From an uncultured Synechococcus sp. (GTDB taxonomy: Bacteria; Cyanobacteriota; Cyanobacteriia; PCC-6307; Cyanobiaceae): a stretch of 64,000 bases of DNA. The stretch covers positions 9,962 to 73,961 of the forward strand of contig CAJWYF010000005.1 in assembly GCA_913049535.1 (NCBI GenBank). Direction: 5' to 3'. A program made the translations under genes and the position numbers. Shown piece by piece: positions 11,767 to 48,873 of this stretch (position 1 is its first letter; every line of letters begins with the position of its first letter). The notes under the pieces were generated by a model. The model made no database searches and was not told where the DNA came from. It was given only the letters and a program-made list of their open reading frames with translations.

Positions 11767-14474
11767 TGTCGTTCACTGAGGCTTCAGCGCAAGCCATGCC
11801 GCCGAGTTCAGAGCATCGGCGCATGGCCGAGCGCGATGAAAAGCAGGTCCCCTGGATGCGATGGGGCAGTTACCTCAGCGATCGACAGTGGGGCACGGTG
11901 CGTGAGGACTACTCAGCAAGTGGTGATGCCTGGAGCTCTTTTCCCCATGACCATGCCCGCTCACGCACCTATCGCTGGGGCGAAGATGGTCTGCTGGGCA
12001 TCTGTGATCAGCGCTGTTTCCTTTGCTTTGGCATCGCACTGTGGAATGGCAAGGATCCGATCTTGAAGGAGCGACCCTTCGGACTGGGCAATGGTGAGGG
12101 GAATCATGGGGAGGACATCAAGGATTACTTTTTTCATCTGCTGAATACCCCCACCCATAGCTTCATGCGCGGGCTCTACAAATACCCCCAGCAGGAATTC
12201 CCGTATCAGCATCTGGTGGAAGAAAACGGCCGCCGGGGCCGCGATGAACCTGAATACGAGCTGGTTGAAACAGGCATTTTTGATGATAATCGCTATTTCG
12301 ATGTCATTGTTGATTACGCCAAGGCCAGCCCCGAAGATGTGCTGATTCGCATCCGCATCATCAATCGTGGCCCGGATGCAGCTCCCCTGACCTTGCTCCC
12401 GTCCCTCTGGATGCGTAACACCTGGGACTGGGGTTACAGCGATGCATGGCGTCAGCGCCACCCCCTCAAGCGGATCGCAACAGGTGTCGAAACCGCTGAT
12501 TTGAACAGTCTTGGCACCTATCAACTGGTTTGCCGGGAGCAGGGATCGTGGCTGTTCACAGAAAATCAGACCAACACGGAGCGCCTTTACGGCCAGCCCA
12601 ACCAGCAGCCTTATGTGAAGGATGCATTCCACCGCTATGTGATCGATGGCGATACCACAGCGGTGAATCCACAGCAGGAAGGAACCAAGGCGGCCTTGCT
12701 GCTTGAGAACACCATCCCTGCTGGAGATGAGTGGGTGGTGGATCTGCGTTTGGCCCGCCAGATGCCAGCGGCGCCTTTTGCGGCGGAGTTTGATCAGATC
12801 TTGCAAGAGCGGGAACGGGACTGCCTGGCCTATTTCCACTCCTGCGCCCCCAATCTCAGTGCGGCAGATGCCCTGATCTTCCGCTCAGCGGCCAGTGGCC
12901 TGCTGTGGTGCAAAAAGTTCTACCGCTGGGTCGTGATTCGGTGGCTCAGTGGTGATCCCAATCACCCCACTCCGCCCGTGGAGAGGCTCAAGACCGAGAA
13001 CGCCTACTGGCGCCGTCTTTACGCCGATGATGTGATCTCCATGCCGGATAGCTGGGAGTACCCCTACTTCTGCCAGTGGGATCTGATGTTCCACTCGGTG
13101 TCCTTCGCACCCATTGATCCGGCCACGGCCAAAGTCCAAAGCATGCTGCTGCGCAGCCCGCGCTACACGGCTCCAAATGCACAAACCCCTGCTTATGAGT
13201 GGGCCTTGTCGGATCCCAATCCACCGATTGGTGCATGGGCTGCCCTGCGTGTGTTTCAGATTGAACGCCATGACCGCGGTAGTGGCGATCTTCCCTATCT
13301 GCGCGCCGCAATGCGCAAGCTCATCCTTGAGTACGGCTGGTGGGCGAACCGGAATGATCGCTCCGGTGACAATGTTTTTGAGGGTGGATTCCTTGGTCTT
13401 GACAATATCGGGGTGTTTGATCGCCGTTATCCACTGCCCGATGGCAGTGTGATTGAACAGTGTGATGGCACGGCATGGATGGCTATGTTGAGTCTCAATC
13501 TGCTTGAGATCGCCGTCATCCTTTCCGCGGAGGAGCCGGAGTATGGCGATTTAGCGGAACGCTTTGTCTATGACTTTGCGCAGTTGGCCTCCACATTGAA
13601 CACCGATGCGGTGATTAATGATACGGCCAAGGTGATGCGCAGCTATCGGAGCTGGGATGAGCAAGATGGCTTTTATTACGACGTCATTAAGCGGCCGGAT
13701 GGCAGCTGGGACTATCTGCGGTCTCGCTCGATCTCTGGCCTGATTCCTCTGCTTGCGGTGGCCAGCTTTGATGTGGATACCGTGCAGCGTGTGGACTCAT
13801 TGAATGTCAATGCCATTCTGCGCCCATTTCTTTCTGAGCGCATCAGTCCTGCTTGGATCAATGAGCATTTTGGACGCTGGAATAATGATCGCACCTTGTT
13901 CTCGCTTGTTCCTGAAGATCATCTCAGGCGCATCCTCGAGTACGTCTTTGATGAGGATGAATTCCTCTCCCCCCATGGGATTCGATCACTGTCCAAGATC
14001 TATGAGCAGAATCCCTATACCTTCCATGAGGGTCTGGAGACAGGCACGCTTGCTTACAGCCCGGCAGACAGTCCTGTTGCCATGTTCGGAGGTAATTCGA
14101 ACTGGCGCGGTCCAGTGTGGATGCCGTTCAATTATCTCCTGATCGAATCGTTGCAGAAATTCGGCCACTATTACGGGGATAGCTTCAAAGTTGAATTCCC
14201 CACACGCTCTGGCCATTGGATCAGTCTCTGGGAGGCCTCGCTGGAGCTGGAAAAGCGTCTGGTGGGCCTGTTCCGCTGTGGTGAGGATGGGCGCCGGCCC
14301 TTCAATGGGGCCGTTGATCTCTTTCAGCATGACCCCCACTGGAAGGATCTGTTGCTATTCAATGAGTACTTCCACGGCGATAACGGCTCTGGTGTTGGTG
14401 CCAGTCACCAGACGGGCTGGACAGCGATCGTGCTGAAGATGATCACCCAATTGCAGCGCTACAGCTCGATGTAG
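11766..14474 (+). CDS. GH63-related (MGH1-like six-hairpin) glycoside hydrolase 1, 902 aa
   Basis: [80 protein letters not shown]. Confidence 0.85.
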   Translation: MSFTEASAQAMPPSSEHRRMAERDEKQVPWMRWGSYLSDRQWGTVREDYSASGDAWSSFPHDHARSRTYRWGEDGLLGICDQRCFLCFGIALWNGKDPILKERPFGLGNGEGNHGEDIKDYFFHLLNTPTHSFMRGLYKYPQQEFPYQHLVEENGRRGRDEPEYELVETGIFDDNRYFDVIVDYAKASPEDVLIRIRIINRGPDAAPLTLLPSLWMRNTWDWGYSDAWRQRHPLKRIATGVETADLNSLGTYQLVCREQGSWLFTENQTNTERLYGQPNQQPYVKDAFHRYVIDGDTTAVNPQQEGTKAALLLENTIPAGDEWVVDLRLARQMPAAPFAAEFDQILQERERDCLAYFHSCAPNLSAADALIFRSAASGLLWCKKFYRWVVIRWLSGDPNHPTPPVERLKTENAYWRRLYADDVISMPDSWEYPYFCQWDLMFHSVSFAPIDPATAKVQSMLLRSPRYTAPNAQTPAYEWALSDPNPPIGAWAALRVFQIERHDRGSGDLPYLRAAMRKLILEYGWWANRNDRSGDNVFEGGFLGLDNIGVFDRRYPLPDGSVIEQCDGTAWMAMLSLNLLEIAVILSAEEPEYGDLAERFVYDFAQLASTLNTDAVINDTAKVMRSYRSWDEQDGFYYDVIKRPDGSWDYLRSRSISGLIPLLAVASFDVDTVQRVDSLNVNAILRPFLSERISPAWINEHFGRWNNDRTLFSLVPEDHLRRILEYVFDEDEFLSPHGIRSLSKIYEQNPYTFHEGLETGTLAYSPADSPVAMFGGNSNWRGPVWMPFNYLLIESLQKFGHYYGDSFKVEFPTRSGHWISLWEASLELEKRLVGLFRCGEDGRRPFNGAVDLFQHDPHWKDLLLFNEYFHGDNGSGVGASHQTGWTAIVLKMITQLQRYSSM

Positions 14475-26740: not shown

Positions 26741-27456
26741 CGCAACTCCGCAATCCACTGCAGCACCTGAGCAGGCAGAGAGGGCACCATCAGGCCATGG
26801 CCCACCCCATCGAGTGGAAGCACTGTCGCTTTCGGCAGGGCCTGCCGTAGGGCTTCCCGGCTCAGGGGGTGAACGATCTGATCGTCGCTGGCCTCCACCA
26901 ACAGTACTGGCGCCGCCTGCGGAAACGAGGCCGGCAGGTCGCTGCAGTGCGCCAACACCGCCAGGTCATCCCGCAGGCGGGCCAGTCCCTGGGCTTGCAC
27001 CGGTCCGTCTTCCACCCCGGCAGGCAGCAGCTCCACCGGCTGGGGTTCGGCCACCCGAATGCGGAAATCGGCGAACAGTTGCGGCAGTTCGCCAGCAGCG
27101 AGGCGCTCGTCCATGCGCCGCAGGGCCAGCGCCAGCGGCCGACCTGCAGCACCGCTGGGTACAAAACGGCCAAAGCTGGCCAGCAGCACCACCGCCTCAG
27201 CGGCCGCCAGGGTCTGCGGTGGCACCAGATGCATGCCAAGGGAATTCAGCAGCAACGCGCGGCGGCCCGGTCCCTCCCAGTCCGGTTGGGCTGCTGGGAA
27301 ACGGCCATAGCCCCGTTCGAAACATCGCAATGGCCACTTCCGCAGCTCGCAGCTGCGGCGAAAACCATTCCAGGCGCGCTGGTCACTGCCCCAGCCATGC
27401 ATGCACAGCAGTTGCCAGTTGGTTGTCACGGCCGCCCCTTGGCTGCTCTCCATCAT
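26737..27456 (-). CDS. Alpha/beta hydrolase, BioH/BioK-type pimeloyl-ACP methyl ester esterase
   Basis: MHGWG, NSLG nucleophile elbow, DQIV, GVGHG; lies between bioF and bioC. Confidence 0.75.
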   Translation of the reverse strand: MMESSQGAAVTTNWQLLCMHGWGSDQRAWNGFRRSCELRKWPLRCFERGYGRFPAAQPDWEGPGRRALLLNSLGMHLVPPQTLAAAEAVVLLASFGRFVPSGAAGRPLALALRRMDERLAAGELPQLFADFRIRVAEPQPVELLPAGVEDGPVQAQGLARLRDDLAVLAHCSDLPASFPQAAPVLLVEASDDQIVHPLSREALRQALPKATVLPLDGVGHGLMVPSLPAQVLQWIAELR

Positions 27457-28606: not shown

Positions 28607-31396
28607 ATGACTTCCGCCACCGCCGACGCCGCTGCTGCTGACGGTGGACTGCATCGCTCGGACCCGGGAGGTCTGGATCCGTCGGTGCTGTTTCCCTTCC
28701 CCCTCGATGACTTCCAGTTGGAGGCCATCGCTGCATTGAACCAGGGCCATTCGGTGGTGGTGAGTGCGCCCACCGGATCCGGCAAAACCCTGATCGGTGA
28801 ATACGCCATTCACCGGGCTCTGGCCCACGGCCAACGCGTGTTCTACACGACCCCTTTGAAGGCGCTCTCCAACCAGAAGCTGCGCGACTTCAGAGAGCAG
28901 TTCGGCGCTGAGAAGGTCGGTCTGATGACCGGTGATCTGACCGCCAATCGGGAAGCTCCGATCGTGGTGATGACCACCGAGATCTTCCGCAACATGCTCT
29001 ATGCGGAACTCGATGACGGCATCGATCCGCTGGAGGGCGTGGAGGCGGTGGTGCTGGATGAGTGCCACTACATGAATGACTCCCAGCGCGGCACCGTCTG
29101 GGAGGAATCCATCATCCACTGCCCGCCTCCAATCCAGCTGGTGGCGCTCTCAGCAACGGTTGCCAATGCCGGGCAGTTGACCGACTGGATCGAGCAGGTG
29201 CATGGCCCCAGCGATCTGATCGTCAGCGACTACCGGCCGGTGCCGCTGCAGTTCAGCTTCTGCAGCGCCAAGGGGCTGCATCCGTTGCTCAATGATCAGG
29301 GCACAGGCCTGCATCCCAACTGCAAGGTGTGGCGCGCCCCCAAGGGCCATCACCGCCGCGGCAAAAACCCCAAGCCGCCCCAGCCTGAACCGCCCTCGAT
29401 GGCCTTTGCGGTGGCGCAGCTGGTCGATCGTCAGATGGTGCCTGCGATCGTCTTTCTCTTCAGTCGGCGGGGCTGTGACAAGGCCGTACGCGATCTGCTC
29501 AAGGCCTCTTTGGTGAATGAGCAGGAGGCGGCGGAATTACGCCGCCGCTTTGATGCCTTTGCCCGCAATTCACCGGAGGCGGTGCGTGACGGCGTTCATG
29601 CCGAAGCCCTGCTGCGCGGTGTGGCCGCCCACCATGCCGGCGTGCTGCCGGCGTGGAAGGAGTTGATCGAAGAGCTCTTCCAGGCCGGTCTGGTGAAAGT
29701 GGTGTTTGCCACTGAAACCCTCGCTGCTGGCATCAACATGCCGGCCCGCACCACGGTGATCTCCTCGCTCTCCAAGCGCACCGAGAACGGGCATCGGCCG
29801 CTGATGGCCAGTGAATTTCTGCAGATGGCCGGCCGCGCCGGCCGCCGCGGGCTCGATACCCAGGGCTACGTGGTGACGATGCAGAGCCGTTTTGAGGGGG
29901 TCCGGGAGGCCGGTCAGCTGGCCACCAGTCCTCCTGATCCGCTGGTCAGTCAGTTCATGCCCAGCTACGGCATGGTGCTCAACCTGCTGGCCCGCTACGA
30001 CCTCGACAAGGCCAAGGAGCTGGTGGAGCGGAGCTTTGGGCGCTACCTGGCCACCCTCGATCTGGCCGAGGATCAGGCGCGCATCGCTGAACTGCGCCAG
30101 CAGCTGGAGCTGCTCGGAGAGTCGGTGCCCGATGTCCCCTGGGAGGACTTCGAGGACTACGAAAAGCAGCGCGGCCGCTTGCGGGAAGAGCGACGCTTGC
30201 TGCGCATCCTGCAGCAGCAGGCCGAGGAGACCCTGGCCCATGAGCTGACGCTGGCCTTGCAGTTCGCCAGCCCCGGCACCTTGGTGAGCCTGAAGGCCCC
30301 CCAGCTCAAGGGGGCTGTCGCAGCAGCGGTGATTGTCGACAAGCTCGATGGTCCTGGGCAGTTCCCGCTGCTGCAGTGCCTCACCGAGGACAACATCTGG
30401 ATCGTTGTCCCTTGCAACGCTGTGGTGGGACTGCATGCCGAGCTCAGCTGCCTGCAGGTCGACGAGATCGCCACCCCAGCAATGGAGCGTCCTGGTGAAT
30501 TGCGCCACGGCGATCAGACCAGCGGAGGGCTTGCTCTGGCGGTGGCGGCGATGGCCCGCCGGCATGACATGCACACCCCCCAGTACGACCTGGCTGGGGA
30601 GGTGCGTGAGCATGCCGAACTGGTGCACGCCCTCGAGGAGGAGCTGGAACTGCATCCCGCCCATCGCTGGGGTGATCGCAAGCAGCTCAAGAAGCAGCGG
30701 CGGCGCATGGAGGAGCTGGAGCTGGAGATCGCCGAGCGTCAGCAGGTGCTGCACCAACGGGCCAATCGCCACTGGGAGACGTTCCTTTCGCTGATCGAAA
30801 TCCTGCAGCATTTCGGCTGCCTGGATGAGCTGGAACCCACCGAGATCGGTCGCACGGTGGCGGCGCTGCGGGGGGATAACGAGCTCTGGCTTGGTCTGGC
30901 CTTGATGAGCGGCCACTGTGATGAGCTCTCTCCCTCAGATCTGGCTTCGGTGCTGGAGGCGATCTCCACAGAAGTCAGCCGGCCTGATCTTTGGACGGCG
31001 TATCCGCCACCACCACAAGCTGAGGAGGTGCTGCATGACATCCGCGGGCTCAGGCGTGAGCTCCTGCGTCAGCAGGAGCGCCACAACGTGCTGTTCCCGG
31101 TCTGGTGGGAGCCGGATCTAATGGGGCTGGTGAAGGCCTGGGCCGATGGCGAAAGCTGGAGTGATCTGATCGCCAACACCTCACTCGATGAAGGCGATGT
31201 GGTCCGCTTGCTACGTCGCACTGTCGATCTGCTGGCCCAGCTTCCCTATTGCCCTGCGGTGAGTGAGGAGTTGCGCCGTAATGGCCGCCGGGCGCTGCAG
31301 CTGATCAATCGCTTCCCGGTGAAGGAAGCAGTGGTGGAAGGTGTGGTGGATGATTCGCTCAATCCGGCCACTCAGCGGGCTGCTGGGACTGACTAG
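28607..31396 (+). CDS. Ski2-like SF2 DEAD/DEAH RNA helicase (HelY family)
   Basis: APTGSGKT, TPLKALSNQK, DECH, LSAT, HHAG, FATETLAAGINMPA, QMAGRAGRRG. Confidence 0.92.
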   Translation: MTSATADAAAADGGLHRSDPGGLDPSVLFPFPLDDFQLEAIAALNQGHSVVVSAPTGSGKTLIGEYAIHRALAHGQRVFYTTPLKALSNQKLRDFREQFGAEKVGLMTGDLTANREAPIVVMTTEIFRNMLYAELDDGIDPLEGVEAVVLDECHYMNDSQRGTVWEESIIHCPPPIQLVALSATVANAGQLTDWIEQVHGPSDLIVSDYRPVPLQFSFCSAKGLHPLLNDQGTGLHPNCKVWRAPKGHHRRGKNPKPPQPEPPSMAFAVAQLVDRQMVPAIVFLFSRRGCDKAVRDLLKASLVNEQEAAELRRRFDAFARNSPEAVRDGVHAEALLRGVAAHHAGVLPAWKELIEELFQAGLVKVVFATETLAAGINMPARTTVISSLSKRTENGHRPLMASEFLQMAGRAGRRGLDTQGYVVTMQSRFEGVREAGQLATSPPDPLVSQFMPSYGMVLNLLARYDLDKAKELVERSFGRYLATLDLAEDQARIAELRQQLELLGESVPDVPWEDFEDYEKQRGRLREERRLLRILQQQAEETLAHELTLALQFASPGTLVSLKAPQLKGAVAAAVIVDKLDGPGQFPLLQCLTEDNIWIVVPCNAVVGLHAELSCLQVDEIATPAMERPGELRHGDQTSGGLALAVAAMARRHDMHTPQYDLAGEVREHAELVHALEEELELHPAHRWGDRKQLKKQRRRMEELELEIAERQQVLHQRANRHWETFLSLIEILQHFGCLDELEPTEIGRTVAALRGDNELWLGLALMSGHCDELSPSDLASVLEAISTEVSRPDLWTAYPPPPQAEEVLHDIRGLRRELLRQQERHNVLFPVWWEPDLMGLVKAWADGESWSDLIANTSLDEGDVVRLLRRTVDLLAQLPYCPAVSEELRRNGRRALQLINRFPVKEAVVEGVVDDSLNPATQRAAGTD

Positions 31397-31479
31397 GACA
31401 GTCCTTCAATCACTGAAATTCTGCCGCCGCTAGTTATCGGACTGGCTCTGAAAGTTTGGAAGGCTGTCTTAGCAGGCTT

Positions 31480-31710
31480 TTATTTATCGGTCGGTTGCCA
31501 GAGCGGCGAACCAATCGGCGGCATGACCTCAGCAAGTTCCAGCATCTGGGCGTGAGTGAAGCCGATCTCACTATTGAAGACAGCAGTGAGGTGGTCCCGC
31601 GATAACTCGAGTCCTTCTAGGACAGCTGCTTCACGGCTGGAGGCATTGGTGGGCTCAAGGCGCGACTGGTGGCCATCCCAGAAGCAGAGCCAGTAATTGG
31701 GGTTGTTCAT
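31480..31710 (-). CDS. Hypothetical protein, 76 aa
   Basis: ATG-started ORF 6 nt downstream of the neighbouring co-oriented ORF. Confidence 0.5.
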   Translation of the reverse strand: MNNPNYWLCFWDGHQSRLEPTNASSREAAVLEGLELSRDHLTAVFNSEIGFTHAQMLELAEVMPPIGSPLWQPTDK

Positions 31711-31716
31711 GACTGC

Positions 31717-31917
31717 TCATCCGAGCTGTTCAACGGGTGCGTCGGTGGGCGTGTCAGTGGGTGCATCGATTACTGAGACTGTTAAACCCATTAACCCAAG
31801 TGCCGCAATGCAGATAACAAAAGTGCGAATGGACACTCCCTTGGCTTGATTGGGTGCGAACGCTTCACGAATGGACGAGGTTGTTTTGATCGTGGTCCGG
31901 TTGGTGTTGTCGGTCAT
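31717..31917 (-). CDS. Small single-TM hypothetical protein, 66 aa
   Basis: GAGGT Shine-Dalgarno upstream; hydrophobic FVICIAALGLMGLTVSVI. Confidence 0.6.
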   Translation of the reverse strand: MTDNTNRTTIKTTSSIREAFAPNQAKGVSIRTFVICIAALGLMGLTVSVIDAPTDTPTDAPVEQLG

Positions 31918-31972
31918 GGTTTGACCTCTGTTTCGACCCTTTCACTATCACTGCCATTGATGGTTCCCCGCT

Positions 31973-31997
31973 TCCCCCAAAAGGGTGAATTGCCCTT
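31973..31997 (-). promoter_or_regulatory. Repeated upstream element, copy 1
   Basis: + strand TCCCCCAAAAGGGTGAATTGCCCTT; 21/25 identical to copy 3. Confidence 0.55.
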
Positions 31998-32002
31998 GGC
32001 CC

Positions 32003-32134
32003 TTATTGCCGCCTGCCGAGCACGTAACCGATCAGTAATCCAGAGCCAACGTTCAGTAAGGCCATTTGCAGGCGCTCCAGATCCTTGTCACTCATGCCTC
32101 TGCTGAACGCCAATGCACCAGAGATCAGCAGCAT
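32003..32134 (-). CDS. Small hydrophobic ORF, 43 aa (not in ORF track)
   Basis: MLLISGALAFSRGMSDKDLERLQMALLNVGSGLLIGYVLGRRQ; translated by hand. Confidence 0.5.
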   Translation of the reverse strand: MLLISGALAFSRGMSDKDLERLQMALLNVGSGLLIGYVLGRRQ

Positions 32135-32142
32135 GAAAACCG

Positions 32143-32325
32143 CTAGCCAATAGACACGCCCCTTGCTTTGGCGCTTGCCTGAACCACTTGATCCTCTGCT
32201 CGATATCGATCTCCCAGTTGGTGGTTGCTTGACCCCGCTGCATCGGTTTGGCTCAAGCGCTTGGCCTCCGCTTCATCCCGGGCCATTTCCTCTTCGACCT
32301 GGCGGAGTTGTTCTTTGGGGTCCAT
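32143..32325 (-). CDS. Small charged ORF, 60 aa
   Basis: MDPKEQLRQVEEEMARDEAEAKR...; GGAGG 9 nt upstream of ATG. Confidence 0.55.
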   Translation of the reverse strand: MDPKEQLRQVEEEMARDEAEAKRLSQTDAAGSSNHQLGDRYRAEDQVVQASAKARGVSIG

Positions 32326-32386
32326 CCGCTCAGCCTCCCGTAGTCGCTGGGGTCGTGGCGAGGAAAGCAGGGAAAGCTGGCTGCTG

Positions 32387-32530
32387 CTACCGGAAACGGG
32401 TCTCGATCTCCAGGGGTTGATTGGCTGGTGGTGCCAGCTCGAGGCTGTAGGCGGTGAACCCGACGCAGGCGAGCAGGGAGACGGCGATGACCAGCGGCCA
32501 AGTGCCAAAGATTTCTTGGAGGACTTTCAT
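32387..32530 (-). CDS. Small single-TM ORF, 47 aa (not in ORF track)
   Basis: MKVLQEIFGTWPLVIAVSLLACVGFTAYSLELAPPANQPLEIETRFR; 9 nt after upstream ORF. Confidence 0.5.
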   Translation of the reverse strand: MKVLQEIFGTWPLVIAVSLLACVGFTAYSLELAPPANQPLEIETRFR

Positions 32531-32539
32531 CGTTCAGGT

Positions 32540-32644
32540 TCAGAGGATGATTTCGGTGCGTGTGTTGCGCTCTGCCATCGCATTGATCAAGGTGCGGGCA
32601 GTCAGTGCGAAAGCGGTGCTGGCGATGACGGCGACGAGGGTCAT
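32540..32644 (-). CDS. Small hydrophobic ORF, 34 aa (not in ORF track)
   Basis: MTLVAVIASTAFALTARTLINAMAERNTRTEIIL; GGAG upstream. Confidence 0.45.
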   Translation of the reverse strand: MTLVAVIASTAFALTARTLINAMAERNTRTEIIL

Positions 32645-32694
32645 GGGTCTTGCTCCGATGCCTTCACCATCACGCCGGAGCCAGCATCAGTGGA

Positions 32695-32715
32695 TCCCCA
32701 AAGGAGTGAATGGCC
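32695..32715 (-). promoter_or_regulatory. Repeated upstream element, copy 2
   Basis: + strand TCCCCAAAGGAGTGAATGGCC. Confidence 0.45.
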
Positions 32716-32773
32716 AACAACAACTCCTGCTTCAGCAGGGGCAGGCAGCGCTCGCCACTCTTGGGTTTGATCA

Positions 32774-33502
32774 TCAGAGACTTAATCCATAGATGGTTGC
32801 GAATTCATCCTGAAATGGAGAAGCTTTCAGGAGCTCGGTAATACCCAATTCGTCCTGCCAATCGATGATCGATCGTTCCCAGCCCTCTTCCCAGCGAGGC
32901 GAGAAAAGATCAGGCACCTTTTGACCAACGGTGATGCCAAAACCGATGGCATCCCAGATCAATCGGTGCTCACTTGGCTCGTAGGCACCACGTAGCATCC
33001 ACGAGGACAGAATTCCAATCTGAAAAGGGCTTGATCCAGAGCTTGCATAAAATGCTGTCGCTGCGGCTTCACCTGCGACGGTGATCGGAAGACCAAGAAT
33101 CGTGTGGTGAATTTCGTGCAGACGCGCACCTCTTGTGATGACGAACTCTTCATCCGTTTGGGATTCTGGCACCTGAGCCTGATTCACTAAAAAAGAAATA
33201 CCCAGCCTCTCCAGGCGGCGTTGGACGCACCATCCAAGGCTTCCTTGGGGCATGGCAGCCATCTGCTCAAAATCTGGCCAAATCTGTGAAGGCCGGTTGG
33301 CAAGCAAGGCCTGAACTTTCGGGGTGGCCAGGGTTCTTTCTAGAATGCTTTTTTCCAGCTTGGTGTTTGCTGGAATGCCAAAATATCGGGCGTGTTGGAA
33401 GGCTTTGTGAGGCTGTTTTGCTGTCTGCAGAATGGAAATCCCTAGTTTTGCAGCACCCTTGGAAAATGAGGAGCGGACGTAATGCTGTTGTTTTGAAGTC
33501 AT
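32774..33502 (-). CDS. Coq4-family protein
   Basis: MPQGSLG, RLHEIHHTILG...AGEA (Coq4 HDxxH-x-E type metal motif); start 33502 preferred, 33523/33526 possible. Confidence 0.75.
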   Translation of the reverse strand: MTSKQQHYVRSSFSKGAAKLGISILQTAKQPHKAFQHARYFGIPANTKLEKSILERTLATPKVQALLANRPSQIWPDFEQMAAMPQGSLGWCVQRRLERLGISFLVNQAQVPESQTDEEFVITRGARLHEIHHTILGLPITVAGEAAATAFYASSGSSPFQIGILSSWMLRGAYEPSEHRLIWDAIGFGITVGQKVPDLFSPRWEEGWERSIIDWQDELGITELLKASPFQDEFATIYGLSL

Positions 33503-33552
33503 CGCTTGATGAAGCTCTGCCATCAATGTCGCTGGAACCCCAGAAGATGTGC

Positions 33553-33577
33553 TCCCCCGAAAGGGTGATTGGCCCCT
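33553..33577 (-). promoter_or_regulatory. Repeated upstream element, copy 3
   Basis: + strand TCCCCCGAAAGGGTGATTGGCCCCT. Confidence 0.55.
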
Positions 33578-33734
33578 GAGACTTTGCTGAGTTGGCGACA
33601 GAACAAGCCACAGCCCTCGCCGTAGCAGGGGCCGTGGCTTGCTCAGCCTGGGGATGGATCACGGCAGCCCGTGCCCTGCTTCCCCATGCGCTGGTGAGCT
33701 GTGCCTCAGTCTCCGCAGAGACAACGCCGACGGA

Positions 33735-35030
33735 TCAGATCGCCAAACGGGCGTAGATGGTGTCGAGCTGGGCTTGATGCCGCTCGGTGCTGAAGCAGTC
33801 CGCCAGCTGCTCAGCGCTGATGCGTTCGGTGACCTCCGGATCGTTCTCGAGCGCCTTGCGGAAGTTGCCGCCCTCCACGTTCCAGGCGGCGTGGGCATGG
33901 CCCTGCACCAGCCGGTAGGCGTCTTCTCTGCTCATGCCGCTCTCCACCAGGGCCAACAGCACCGTTTGGCTGAACACCACACCGCCGTAGCGATTCATGT
34001 TGCGCAGCATCGTGTCGGGATACACCTGCAGGCCACTGACCACCTTGGTCATCTCCCGCAGCATGAAGTGCAGGGTGGCGCTCACATCAGGCAGCATCAT
34101 GCGCTCCACTGAGCTGTGGCTGATGTCCCGCTCGTGCCAGAGCGCCACGTTCTCCAGGGCCGCCACCGTGTAGCTGCGCAGCACGCGGGCCAGCCCACTG
34201 ATGCGCTCGCTGCGGATGGGGTTGCGCTTGTGGGGCATGGCCGAACTGCCCTTCTGCCCCTTGGCGAAGGCTTCCTCCACCTCCAGCACATCACTGCGCT
34301 GCAGGTTGCGGATTTCCGTGGAGAAGCGCTCCAGGGCGGTGCCCACCAAGGCCAGGGTCTGCACGTAATCAGCGTGCCGGTCGCGGCTGATCACCTGGGT
34401 GCTGGCTGGATCAGGCCGCAGCCCGAGCAGTTCACAGGCTCGTTCTTCGATCTGGGGCTCGGTGTTGGCGTAGTTGCCCATTGCGCCACTGATCTGGCCG
34501 ACGCTGACGGCTTTCTGCAGTCGCTTGAGGCGTTTGATGTTGCGCTCGGTTTCCGCCAGCCAACCGGCGAGCTTGAAGCCAAAGGTGATGGGCTCACCGT
34601 GGATGGCGTGGGAACGCCCGATCATCACGGTGTGTTTGTGGGCCCGTGCCTGCATCCGGATGGCTTCTGCCAGCTTGTCCAGCTCCTGGCGCAGCAGCTG
34701 CACCGATGCCCGCAGCTGCAGGGCCAGGCCCGTGTCGAGCACGTCGGAGCTGGTCATGCCGACATGGATGTAACGCCCGGCATCGCCCACATGCTCGTTG
34801 ACGTTGGTGAGGAACGCGATCACGTCGTGACGCACCTCCGCCTCGATCTCAAGGATCCGCTCGCGACTGAAGGCTGCCTTGTCTTTGATCGTCGCCAAGG
34901 CCTCAGCCGGCACGCGCCCCTGATCGGCTTGAGCCTCACAGACAGCAACCTCAACGTCCAGCCAGCTCTGGAACTTGGCCTCCTCGGTCCAGATCCCGCC
35001 CATCTCCGGCAGGGTGTAGCGCTCGATCAA
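33735..35030 (-). CDS. purB: Adenylosuccinate lyase
   Basis: MIERYTLPEMG, RHDVIAF, GMTSSDVLDT, GRSHAIHGEP, GSSAMPHKRNP. Confidence 0.96.
   Translation of the reverse strand: MIERYTLPEMGGIWTEEAKFQSWLDVEVAVCEAQADQGRVPAEALATIKDKAAFSRERILEIEAEVRHDVIAFLTNVNEHVGDAGRYIHVGMTSSDVLDTGLALQLRASVQLLRQELDKLAEAIRMQARAHKHTVMIGRSHAIHGEPITFGFKLAGWLAETERNIKRLKRLQKAVSVGQISGAMGNYANTEPQIEERACELLGLRPDPASTQVISRDRHADYVQTLALVGTALERFSTEIRNLQRSDVLEVEEAFAKGQKGSSAMPHKRNPIRSERISGLARVLRSYTVAALENVALWHERDISHSSVERMMLPDVSATLHFMLREMTKVVSGLQVYPDTMLRNMNRYGGVVFSQTVLLALVESGMSREDAYRLVQGHAHAAWNVEGGNFRKALENDPEVTERISAEQLADCFSTERHQAQLDTIYARLAI

Positions 35031-47710: not shown

Positions 47711-48873
<1,163 letters not shown>

Follow-up and report, generated by a model that had tools for sequence, protein, structure and literature searches.

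Candidate portable promoter-leader cassettes in front of unrelated accessory genes of a Synechococcus genomic islet

In T4-type phages the early promoters known as PeSLs (promoter-early stem-loops) are ~100 bp in length and combine the promoter with a stem-loop of G/C tracts at or near the −10 box, a Shine-Dalgarno sequence and an ATG; they are situated among small ORFans in hyperplastic regions, where recombination between copies leads to insertion and deletion of whole units (Arbiol et al. 2010, PMC2839356; Comeau et al. 2014, PMC4122927). A class of putative mobile promoters, or promoter reuse in prokaryotes, was defined by similarity of upstream regions (Nijveen, Matus-Garcia and van Passel 2012, PMC3575422). 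Here we analyse a repeated element that precedes three units of an accessory islet in a 64 000-nt stretch of DNA (below, the window) of an uncultured Synechococcus sp. (assembly GCA_913049535.1, contig CAJWYF010000005.1, positions 9962 to 73 961 of the forward strand). It is known that picocyanobacterial genomes differ mainly in small hypervariable islets rich in tiny genes of unknown function; to our knowledge, the expression, co-ordination and exchange of islet genes are poorly understood. From the comparisons described below we think, with moderate confidence, that the three copies are the cores of homologous portable promoter-plus-leader cassettes that would provide islet genes with common expression signals and, at the same time, act as a recombination joint of the islet.

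An earlier description of the window made from its letters (the sequence-only reading) had pointed to a ~20-bp element repeated 58, 52 and 53 nt upstream of three minus-strand ATG codons. We defined the motif as the 16-mer AWTCACYCYTTYGGGG, with the minus strand being the coding one and with positions numbered along the 64-kb window. The motif is present with no mismatches at 31975-31990, 32696-32711 and 33555-33570 (minus strand), at the claimed distances of 58 nt (ATG 31917), 52 nt (ATG 32644) and 53 nt (ATG 33502); tolerating up to two mismatches adds no further site in the window. The repetition is real and far above chance: the 1.93-Mb genome (63% G+C) contains five exact sites versus 0.012 expected from base composition, and the reversed genome sequence, used as a control, contains none. 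All five sites are intergenic and each is directed toward an ORF (open reading frame); the two sites outside the window, at C12:27547 and C18:12415 (contig and position), have small ORFs just downstream.

A profile and a covariance model were built from the five exact copies. The profile search of the window, run with no speed filter, returned the three copies only (E-values 1e-15 to 1e-17; 79 bits and 1e-17 for copy 2, 79 bits for copy 1), the next match having an E-value of ~1. In the rest of the genome it returned C12:27538-27618, C12:27875-27943 and C18:12411-12484, along with a weak match at C2:136814-136913. Both models qualify C12:27875-27943 as a sixth copy and the C2 match as a weak tandem copy; the total for the source genome by the covariance model is 6–7 copies. 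The ORFs situated upstream of the C12 and C18 copies (C12 ~27150-27360, C18 ~12016-12160) look paralogous, both Cys-containing and of the form ...LPFC...QQVL...; entire neighbourhoods, beyond the leader, may be duplicated there.

The exact 14-mer TCACYCYTTYGGGG, used as a probe in 120 relatives, produced almost only chance matches; therefore, the motif was searched for as a profile. With the covariance/profile model, matches were found in 15 of 301 genomes of the family: 11 copies in Synechococcus sp. RCC307, 5–6 in MIT S9452, one in genome G006 and one apiece in genomes from three further genera, with WH 8017 and MIT S9507 among the single-copy genomes. In these relatives the conserved motif is always upstream of ORFs and co-oriented with them. 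Another pattern, GCAATTCA-N9-14-GAAGCGG, was too unspecific for metagenomes, since only chance matches were seen among the matches listed. A phage origin is unsupported as well: blastn gave no match in 50 697 phage records, and all 42 viral-contig matches to the core pattern (42 of 42) failed the model. No description of the motif was found in the searched literature or in Rfam, a statement that holds for those sources only.

The islet is chromosomal and is situated between purB and a convergent DEAD-box helicase gene (28607-31396); on the minus strand the order is purB (33735-35030), a very stable block of two hairpins and three units made of an element and its ORFs. Alignment of the five copies showed that homology runs from ~10 nt upstream of the motif as far as the ATG. 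The repeats noticed in the sequence-only reading are genuine, but the conserved unit is not a ~20-bp element; it is a leader of ~80–95 nt, and the cassette measures ~90 bp. The copies in the window, in the direction of transcription of the minus strand, are as follows.

33500-33595, minus strand: copy 3, type 1 (unit-opening), before the Coq4-like gene with ATG at 33502; a weak −35-like CCAACT (TTGACT in relatives), 17 bp including CAGCAAAGTCTCAGGGG, the hexamer CCAATC, then the leader
33553-33568, minus strand: mini-hairpin of copy 3, TCACCC-TTTC-GGGGGA
32716-32739, minus strand: terminator-like hairpin CCTGCTGAAGCAGG (hairpin itself 32726-32739) with the tail AGTTGTTGTT
32642-32722, minus strand: copy 2, type 2, directly after the terminator-like hairpin, ATG at 32644; TTGTTGG-CCATTC, hairpin CTCC-TTT-GGGG (core 32696-32711), GGGGATCCA, box 2 GTGATGGTGAAGG (32661-32673), GGAG
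31915-32000, minus strand: copy 1, type 2, within a transcription unit, a few nt past the stop codon of a 43-amino-acid (aa) ORF, ATG at 31917; GGG-CAATTC, hairpin TTCACCC-TTTT-GGGGGAA (core 31975-31990), GCGGGGAACCA, box 2 GTGATAGTGAAAGG (31938-31951)

Several details of the sequence-only reading were found as described, namely the mini-hairpins and GGGGWWCCA at the copies, the string GTGATRGTGAARGG that copies 1 and 2 have in common, a stop codon shortly preceding copy 1 and, ahead of copy 2, the terminator-like hairpin (32726-32739). The latter hairpin closes the Coq4 unit and abuts copy 2; it is weaker than its counterpart in RCC307, and the equivalent position is occupied by strong intrinsic terminators both in RCC307 and in MIT S9452.

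The alignment was extended to 42 members, genomic relatives included. Box 1, composed of A-W-TCAC, a C-run, 3–6 nt and a G-run, makes a GC mini-hairpin; it is followed by a variable stretch of 15–25 nt, by box 2 (GYGAYGGTGAAG) and by a purine-rich ribosome-binding stretch (GGAG/GAGA) ~8–13 nt before the ATG. In all members the string (T)CACCC-N3-6-GGGGG(A) begins inside or beside a hexamer described below. Each of the 42 members points the same way as the ORF that follows it, and in 36 of them an ATG-started ORF of at least 25 codons begins 62–73 nt (mode 66) past the T of TCAC. The ATG of box 2 was considered as the start of a conserved upstream ORF (MVK...) and rejected, as it is changed to ACG, ACA or ATA in many members. 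The G-run in the 3′ arm of the copy 2 mini-hairpin (32696-32700, minus strand) varies in length within the species, being G4 in the source genome and G5 in one TARA contig (L269).

Members of the family take three forms. Type 1, which opens a unit, reads (T)TGACTCAG-nAAAGT-CTCAG-nnn-CAAATCACC and has TTGACT exactly 17 bp before the hexamer CAAWTC; copy 3, C12a, all Coq4 leaders and the leader of the MNNAIK gene in RCC307 are examples. Type 2, with no −35, includes copies 2 and 1 and several members in RCC307 and MIT S9452. The triplet TGG directly precedes the hexamer in six members that have no −35, most of them downstream of an intrinsic terminator or a T-run, e.g. GCCCCTGCAGAAGCAGGGGCTTTTCATTGG-CAATTC in RCC307; copy 2, located after the weaker hairpin, has the same TGG and no −35. 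The type-2 members that follow a stop codon by a few nt, with no terminator in between (copy 1 and L088), have neither −35 nor TGG, and in copy 1 not even TGn is present. Type 3 (C12b = C12:27875, C2 and two members in RCC307) has two tandem hairpins, with GAACCMC replacing AWTCAC.

A match of at least four of six positions to TTGACA occurs exactly 17 bp before CAAWTC in 17 of the 42 members; at other offsets from 7 to 34 such a match is seen in 0–3 of 42, at offset 6 in two and at offset 35 in six. One of the −35 members, L060 (CTGACC), has an unrelated spacer. The copy 3 block is gapless across 11 orthologues, and its conservation begins sharply at the −35 hexamer: in these 11 Coq4 leaders the major-allele frequency is 0.52 upstream of TTGACT, 0.94 from TTGACT to the hexamer and 0.90 between the hexamer and the ATG, versus 0.82 at third codon positions of the gene.

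The genes behind the three copies, which we call cargo, are listed below.

32774-33502, minus strand: gene of a 242-aa Coq4-like protein (PF05019, E-value 5e-12), cargo of copy 3
32003-32644, minus strand: cargo block of copy 2, with ORFs of 34 aa (32540-32644), 47 aa (32387-32530), 60 aa (32143-32325) and 43 aa (32003-32134)
31480-31917, minus strand: cargo of copy 1, a membrane micro-protein of 66 aa (31717-31917) and an ORF of 76 aa (31480-31710)

Over the whole family the cargo includes the 242-aa Coq4-family protein, a family of hydrophobic peptides of 34–36 aa, a 47-aa peptide, a membrane protein family of 66/119 aa (SSIREA...), the secreted-looking MNNAIK protein, a 129-aa MTHWRLP protein and an acyltransferase-like ORF of 361 aa, among others. 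By sequence comparison these cargo genes are unrelated to one another. The micro-proteins range from 34 to 130 aa, several being hydrophobic or having a signal-like N-terminus, and none of the small cargo proteins belongs to a Pfam or NCBIfam family. Homologues of the copy 1 cargo are located in RCC307 behind elements at two different loci. Orthologues of the Coq4-like protein with the same leader (74–85% identity) were found in RCC307, MIT S9452, WH 8017 and MIT S9507. The conservation of this protein together with its leader extends from the RCC307-like source genome to strains placed in other genera (WH 8017, MIT S9507; L076-L083); such similarity would fit horizontal transfer of the whole unit.

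Two observations concern the small ORFs of the copy 2 unit. The 60-aa and 43-aa ORFs (32003-32325) make a single 107-aa ORF in the population contigs L267 and L268, which have one extra C; the split frame of the source genome and L266 is either a polymorphism or a homopolymer error. The sequence CCAGCTTTCCCTGCTTTCC at 32361-32380 (minus strand), which precedes the 60-aa ORF, is similar to the 5′ half of box 1 of the GCCAGCTTTCCCTCCTTTAGGGG type from RCC307; it has no G-run and may be a decayed element.

Cargo families are common to three genomes, where they appear in differing order and at differing loci. With elements written as E1 and E2, the units are ordered as [E1-Coq4] [E2-34aa-47aa-60aa-43aa] [E2-66aa-76aa] in the source genome, as [E1-74aa] ... 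[E1-MNNAIK] [E2-47aa-62aa-76aa'] [E1-Coq4] [E2-119aa] in RCC307 and as [E1-Coq4] [E2-34aa-47aa] [E1-361aa] [E2-57aa] [E2-?] in MIT S9452; the MNNAIK unit of the source genome is on another contig (C12). In a BLAST search of the islet against the genus, homology with RCC307 begins at the first base of the type-1 cassette and ends at the next element. RCC307 has one element between the Coq4 and SSIREA genes, where copy 2, four ORFs and copy 1 are found in the source genome. In the three-way alignment the left flank of the RCC307 element is that of copy 2 (the 3′-end of Coq4 and the terminator), while its right flank is that of copy 1 (the SSIREA gene). Therefore, a unit of ~720 bp is an indel with its breakpoint inside the element, and gain or loss of a whole unit of element and ORFs between relatives is directly seen. 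The suggestion of the sequence-only reading that the element is a cassette-joining recombination site holds in the sense of a repeated patch of homology; there is no sign of a dedicated recombinase. One ORF with a tyrosine recombinase domain (PF00589) was found in the genome, which is 91% complete, on contig C3 and away from every copy, and none on C5, C12, C18 or C2.

The sequence-only reading had named, besides the joining site, a shared promoter or operator and a 5′-UTR motif of a small regulon, and both the frequency of the motif and the comparison of units between relatives agree with its interpretation. We propose that the cassette extends up to the start codon of its cargo and supplies a transcription start where one is needed, as well as a common 5′ leader. 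In type 1 the start would be directed by TTGACT, the 17-bp spacer and CAAWTC; in type 2 located after an intrinsic terminator, TGG-CAATTC may work as an extended −10 arrangement. Transcription is predicted to start in or just past the hairpin loop, at the G run, so the mini-hairpin would be at or beside the start, to be followed by box 2 and by the ribosome-binding stretch ~10 nt before the ATG. As the same sequence fronts unrelated accessory genes, they are probably under one common control, and a putative common factor reading the hairpin region could exert it. Being repeated homology patches, the cassettes could also serve as crossover points, such that units of cassette and ORFs would be inserted, deleted and reshuffled among Synechococcus of subcluster 5.3 with no dedicated recombinase. 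Transcription starts of strain CC9605 have been mapped by mdRNA-Seq (PMC5069720).

Several observations weigh against this proposal. The hexamer CAAWTC is a poor −10 box, with C in place of the expected T-7, and a consensus scan of 31300-33800 called no sigma-70 promoter; because of these two facts we infer the promoter rather than observe it. If transcription starts ~7 nt past the hexamer, the 5′ arm of the mini-hairpin is outside the mRNA. The hairpin and box 2 are kept in copies with no promoter features (copy 1, L088), an indication of some role at RNA level; if the predicted promoter is right, their persistence suggests an added RNA-level or operator role. Conservation of the type-1 spacer (CAGCAAAGTCTCAG) goes far beyond what a plain sigma-70 spacer needs. 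Most of the 17 −35-bearing members are homologous and so do not amount to 17 independent observations. As for mobility, a single unit indel was resolved to its breakpoint, and within the species the islet is identical in 23 environmental contigs, TARA Oceans assemblies included. Look-ups of exact islet proteins led to contigs of DNA metagenomes only.

One could extend the proposal, tentatively, to an integrase-free chromosomal gene-cassette system for micro-proteins in subcluster 5.3, in which one expression signal is also the joint, i.e. to a cellular counterpart of the PeSL cassettes. In such a system the CACCC-N4-GGGGG hairpin with its leader may be a private signal recognized by a single factor, or else a nucleotide-sensing, pyrG-type reiterative transcription could take place on the G5 run at the predicted start. 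In either case one switch would govern all accessory micro-protein genes, and it would be as a cassette that the Coq4-like unit passed between subclusters 5.3 and 5.1.

Among other explanations the one that survives best, a possible though clearly less probable one, is a cis-element working purely at RNA level. Transcription would start upstream of the block; located in the 5′ untranslated region or between cistrons, the hairpin and box 2 would set translation or stability as a binding site for an RNA-binding protein or a small RNA, or as a hairpin for RNase processing or stabilization. This view is consistent with the operon-internal copies that have neither −35 nor TGn (copy 1 and L088, the latter at a stop codon) and still keep the hairpin, box 2 and the ATG spacing, as well as with type 3, where GAACCMC removes the hexamer while the hairpin and box 2 remain. 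The stem, extendable over the 42 members to (T)TC-A-CCC / GGG-G-GA(A), tolerates G-U pairs (four cases of C-to-U) and has one double change, CUC/GAG; with its conserved A-G mismatch the site is asymmetric and in this differs from a symmetric operator for a protein. Past the hexamer, conservation of the leader exceeds that of synonymous sites. On the other hand, strong intrinsic terminators are directly upstream of several type-2 copies, which therefore need a start of their own, and in type 1 a perfect −35 hexamer marks the exact onset of conservation. Covariation is minimal in the nearly invariant stem; RNAalifold retained a 4-bp hairpin alone, and in it no compensatory pair. The folding of whole leaders does not surpass that of shuffled sequences (z from −1.3 to +1.5) and the predicted folds differ; no RNA fold beyond the mini-hairpin is conserved. 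Two candidate helices were rejected: the outer helix CUCAG/CUGGG around the hairpin, attractive in single folds, had p = 0.32 in a permutation test of duplex energies of cognate versus non-cognate arms, and pairing of UCACC of box 1 with GGUGA of box 2 is contradicted by TCCCC variants that retain GGTGA and by Coq4-type leaders that have no GGTGA.

A selfish or neutral dispersed repeat, MITE-like (MITE, miniature inverted-repeat transposable element), or a mere segmental-duplication relic that has no function in itself is unlikely. Like such a repeat, the family is multi-copy and confined to a lineage, includes an inverted repeat and is concentrated in a variable islet; yet the orientation shared by 42 of 42 members and the ATG at 62–73 nt in 36 of them are hard to reconcile with it. 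The flanks were seen to have no terminal inverted repeats or target duplications, constraint on the leader exceeds that on synonymous sites and extends across genera, and plain gene duplication does not account for a leader common to non-homologous cargo proteins.

We consider a metabolite riboswitch, e.g. a divergent relative of the glutamine-II (Downstream-peptide) riboswitch, quite unlikely. There is a similarity of context, small ORFs of unknown function in marine picocyanobacteria, and a superficial likeness at the 5′ side, CGUUCAC with a hairpin in glutamine-II versus AWUCAC with a hairpin in the motif. Nevertheless, neither the Rfam scan of the whole window at gathering thresholds nor a permissive one (E-value up to 10) of 31300-33800 and the other copies gave a match at any motif site, RF01704 (gathering score 33 bits) included. 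Four glutamine-II riboswitches (RF01704, 50–61 bits) are present elsewhere in the genome, at C19:3730-3787, C13:103-162, C4:86672-86726 and C2:100703-100758, each before a tiny ORF and preceded by an NtcA-like GTA-N8-TAC box. The pseudoknot arms CGUUC...GGAACG of these true copies are absent from the three window copies and from the 42-member alignment. The glnA RNA (RF01739) has a sole genomic match, C10:4016-4085, at 32.6 bits and below the cut-off. The remark of the sequence-only reading that the element is distinct from the glnA and Downstream-peptide riboswitches is borne out. The mid-leader varies both in sequence and in predicted fold, with no multi-helix consensus and no significant folding energy.

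Finally, we regard it as very unlikely that the element is a dedicated site for site-specific recombination in a gene-cassette system of the integron kind. Such a site is suggested by the row of short ORF units with a conserved imperfect palindrome bounding each of them, by the shuffling of units between genomes and by the indel breakpoint within an element. Against it, the sole tyrosine-recombinase-like ORF of the 91%-complete genome is on C3; the element precedes its ORF, with a fixed spacing to the ATG and homology up to the start codon; no GTTRRRY-type core exists among conserved columns; and there are isolated copies at unrelated loci, as well as single ones in other genera.

Two further RNA features were noted in the window. 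The two-hairpin block just 3′ of purB (33600-33700, minus strand) has a folding energy of −62.1 kcal/mol (z = −5.4 against shuffled sequences) and no Rfam match. For its first hairpin block (33646-33695) there is a paralogue with 88% identity at C2:137341-137391, which is likewise followed by a terminator, as well as a match in MIT S9452; the block may encode a small RNA or be a terminator module that has been conserved. The ATPC RNA motif (RF01067) at 48463-48555 (plus strand, 66.9 bits) is the sole Rfam family above threshold in the window.

A cassette of ~90 nt that can be searched for offers a handle on micro-protein genes missed by gene callers, several of those described here being of only 34–47 aa. 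It also defines a candidate regulon, whose inducing condition could be sought in RCC307, a cultured strain, and it suggests a concrete mechanism for plasticity of islets with no enzymes of mobile elements. If the cassette works like the phage PeSLs, modular shuffling by means of repeated regulatory cassettes is not restricted to phages.

Compared with known systems, the family shares with glutamine-II riboswitches the position of a leader before very small ORFs of marine Synechococcus and the 5′ UCAC followed by a GC hairpin. It differs in having no match to the RF01704 model, no CGUUC/GGAACG pseudoknot arms and no second hairpin, while the true riboswitch copies of the genome occupy other loci, behind their NtcA-like boxes.

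With integrons it has in common short ORF units separated by imperfect palindromes and a modular mode of gain and loss. The attC sites are located 3′ of gene cassettes, whereas the Synechococcus element is 5′ of the ORF and carries predicted expression signals; the islet has no adjacent integrase, attI or conserved core site, and the exchange looks homologous.

Highly similar upstream regions before non-homologous genes, within a genome and across genera, make the family similar to the putative mobile promoters. Unlike that class, defined solely by upstream similarity, the Synechococcus unit can be described part by part and keeps a fixed distance to the ATG, and a unit indel was demonstrated for it.

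The closest described system appears to be the PeSL cassettes of T4-type phages. Their hairpin lies at or near the −10 box of a promoter, while the Synechococcus cassettes have a non-canonical −10-like hexamer within a promoter that is a predicted one; they are located in a cellular chromosome, with no copy found in phage records or viral contigs, and include an extra leader box, GYGAYGGTGAAG. The Synechococcus mini-hairpin has no U-tract, termination being left to separate upstream hairpins, and mini-circles are not known for these cassettes. The likeness nevertheless covers most of the architecture: a composite of ~100 bp with promoter boxes (predicted here), a G/C stem-loop at or beside the −10, a ribosome-binding stretch and a start codon; tight packing among small ORFs of unknown function in a hypervariable region; association with terminators that insulate the units; and related genomes that differ by whole units of cassette and ORF, with the crossover inside the cassette.

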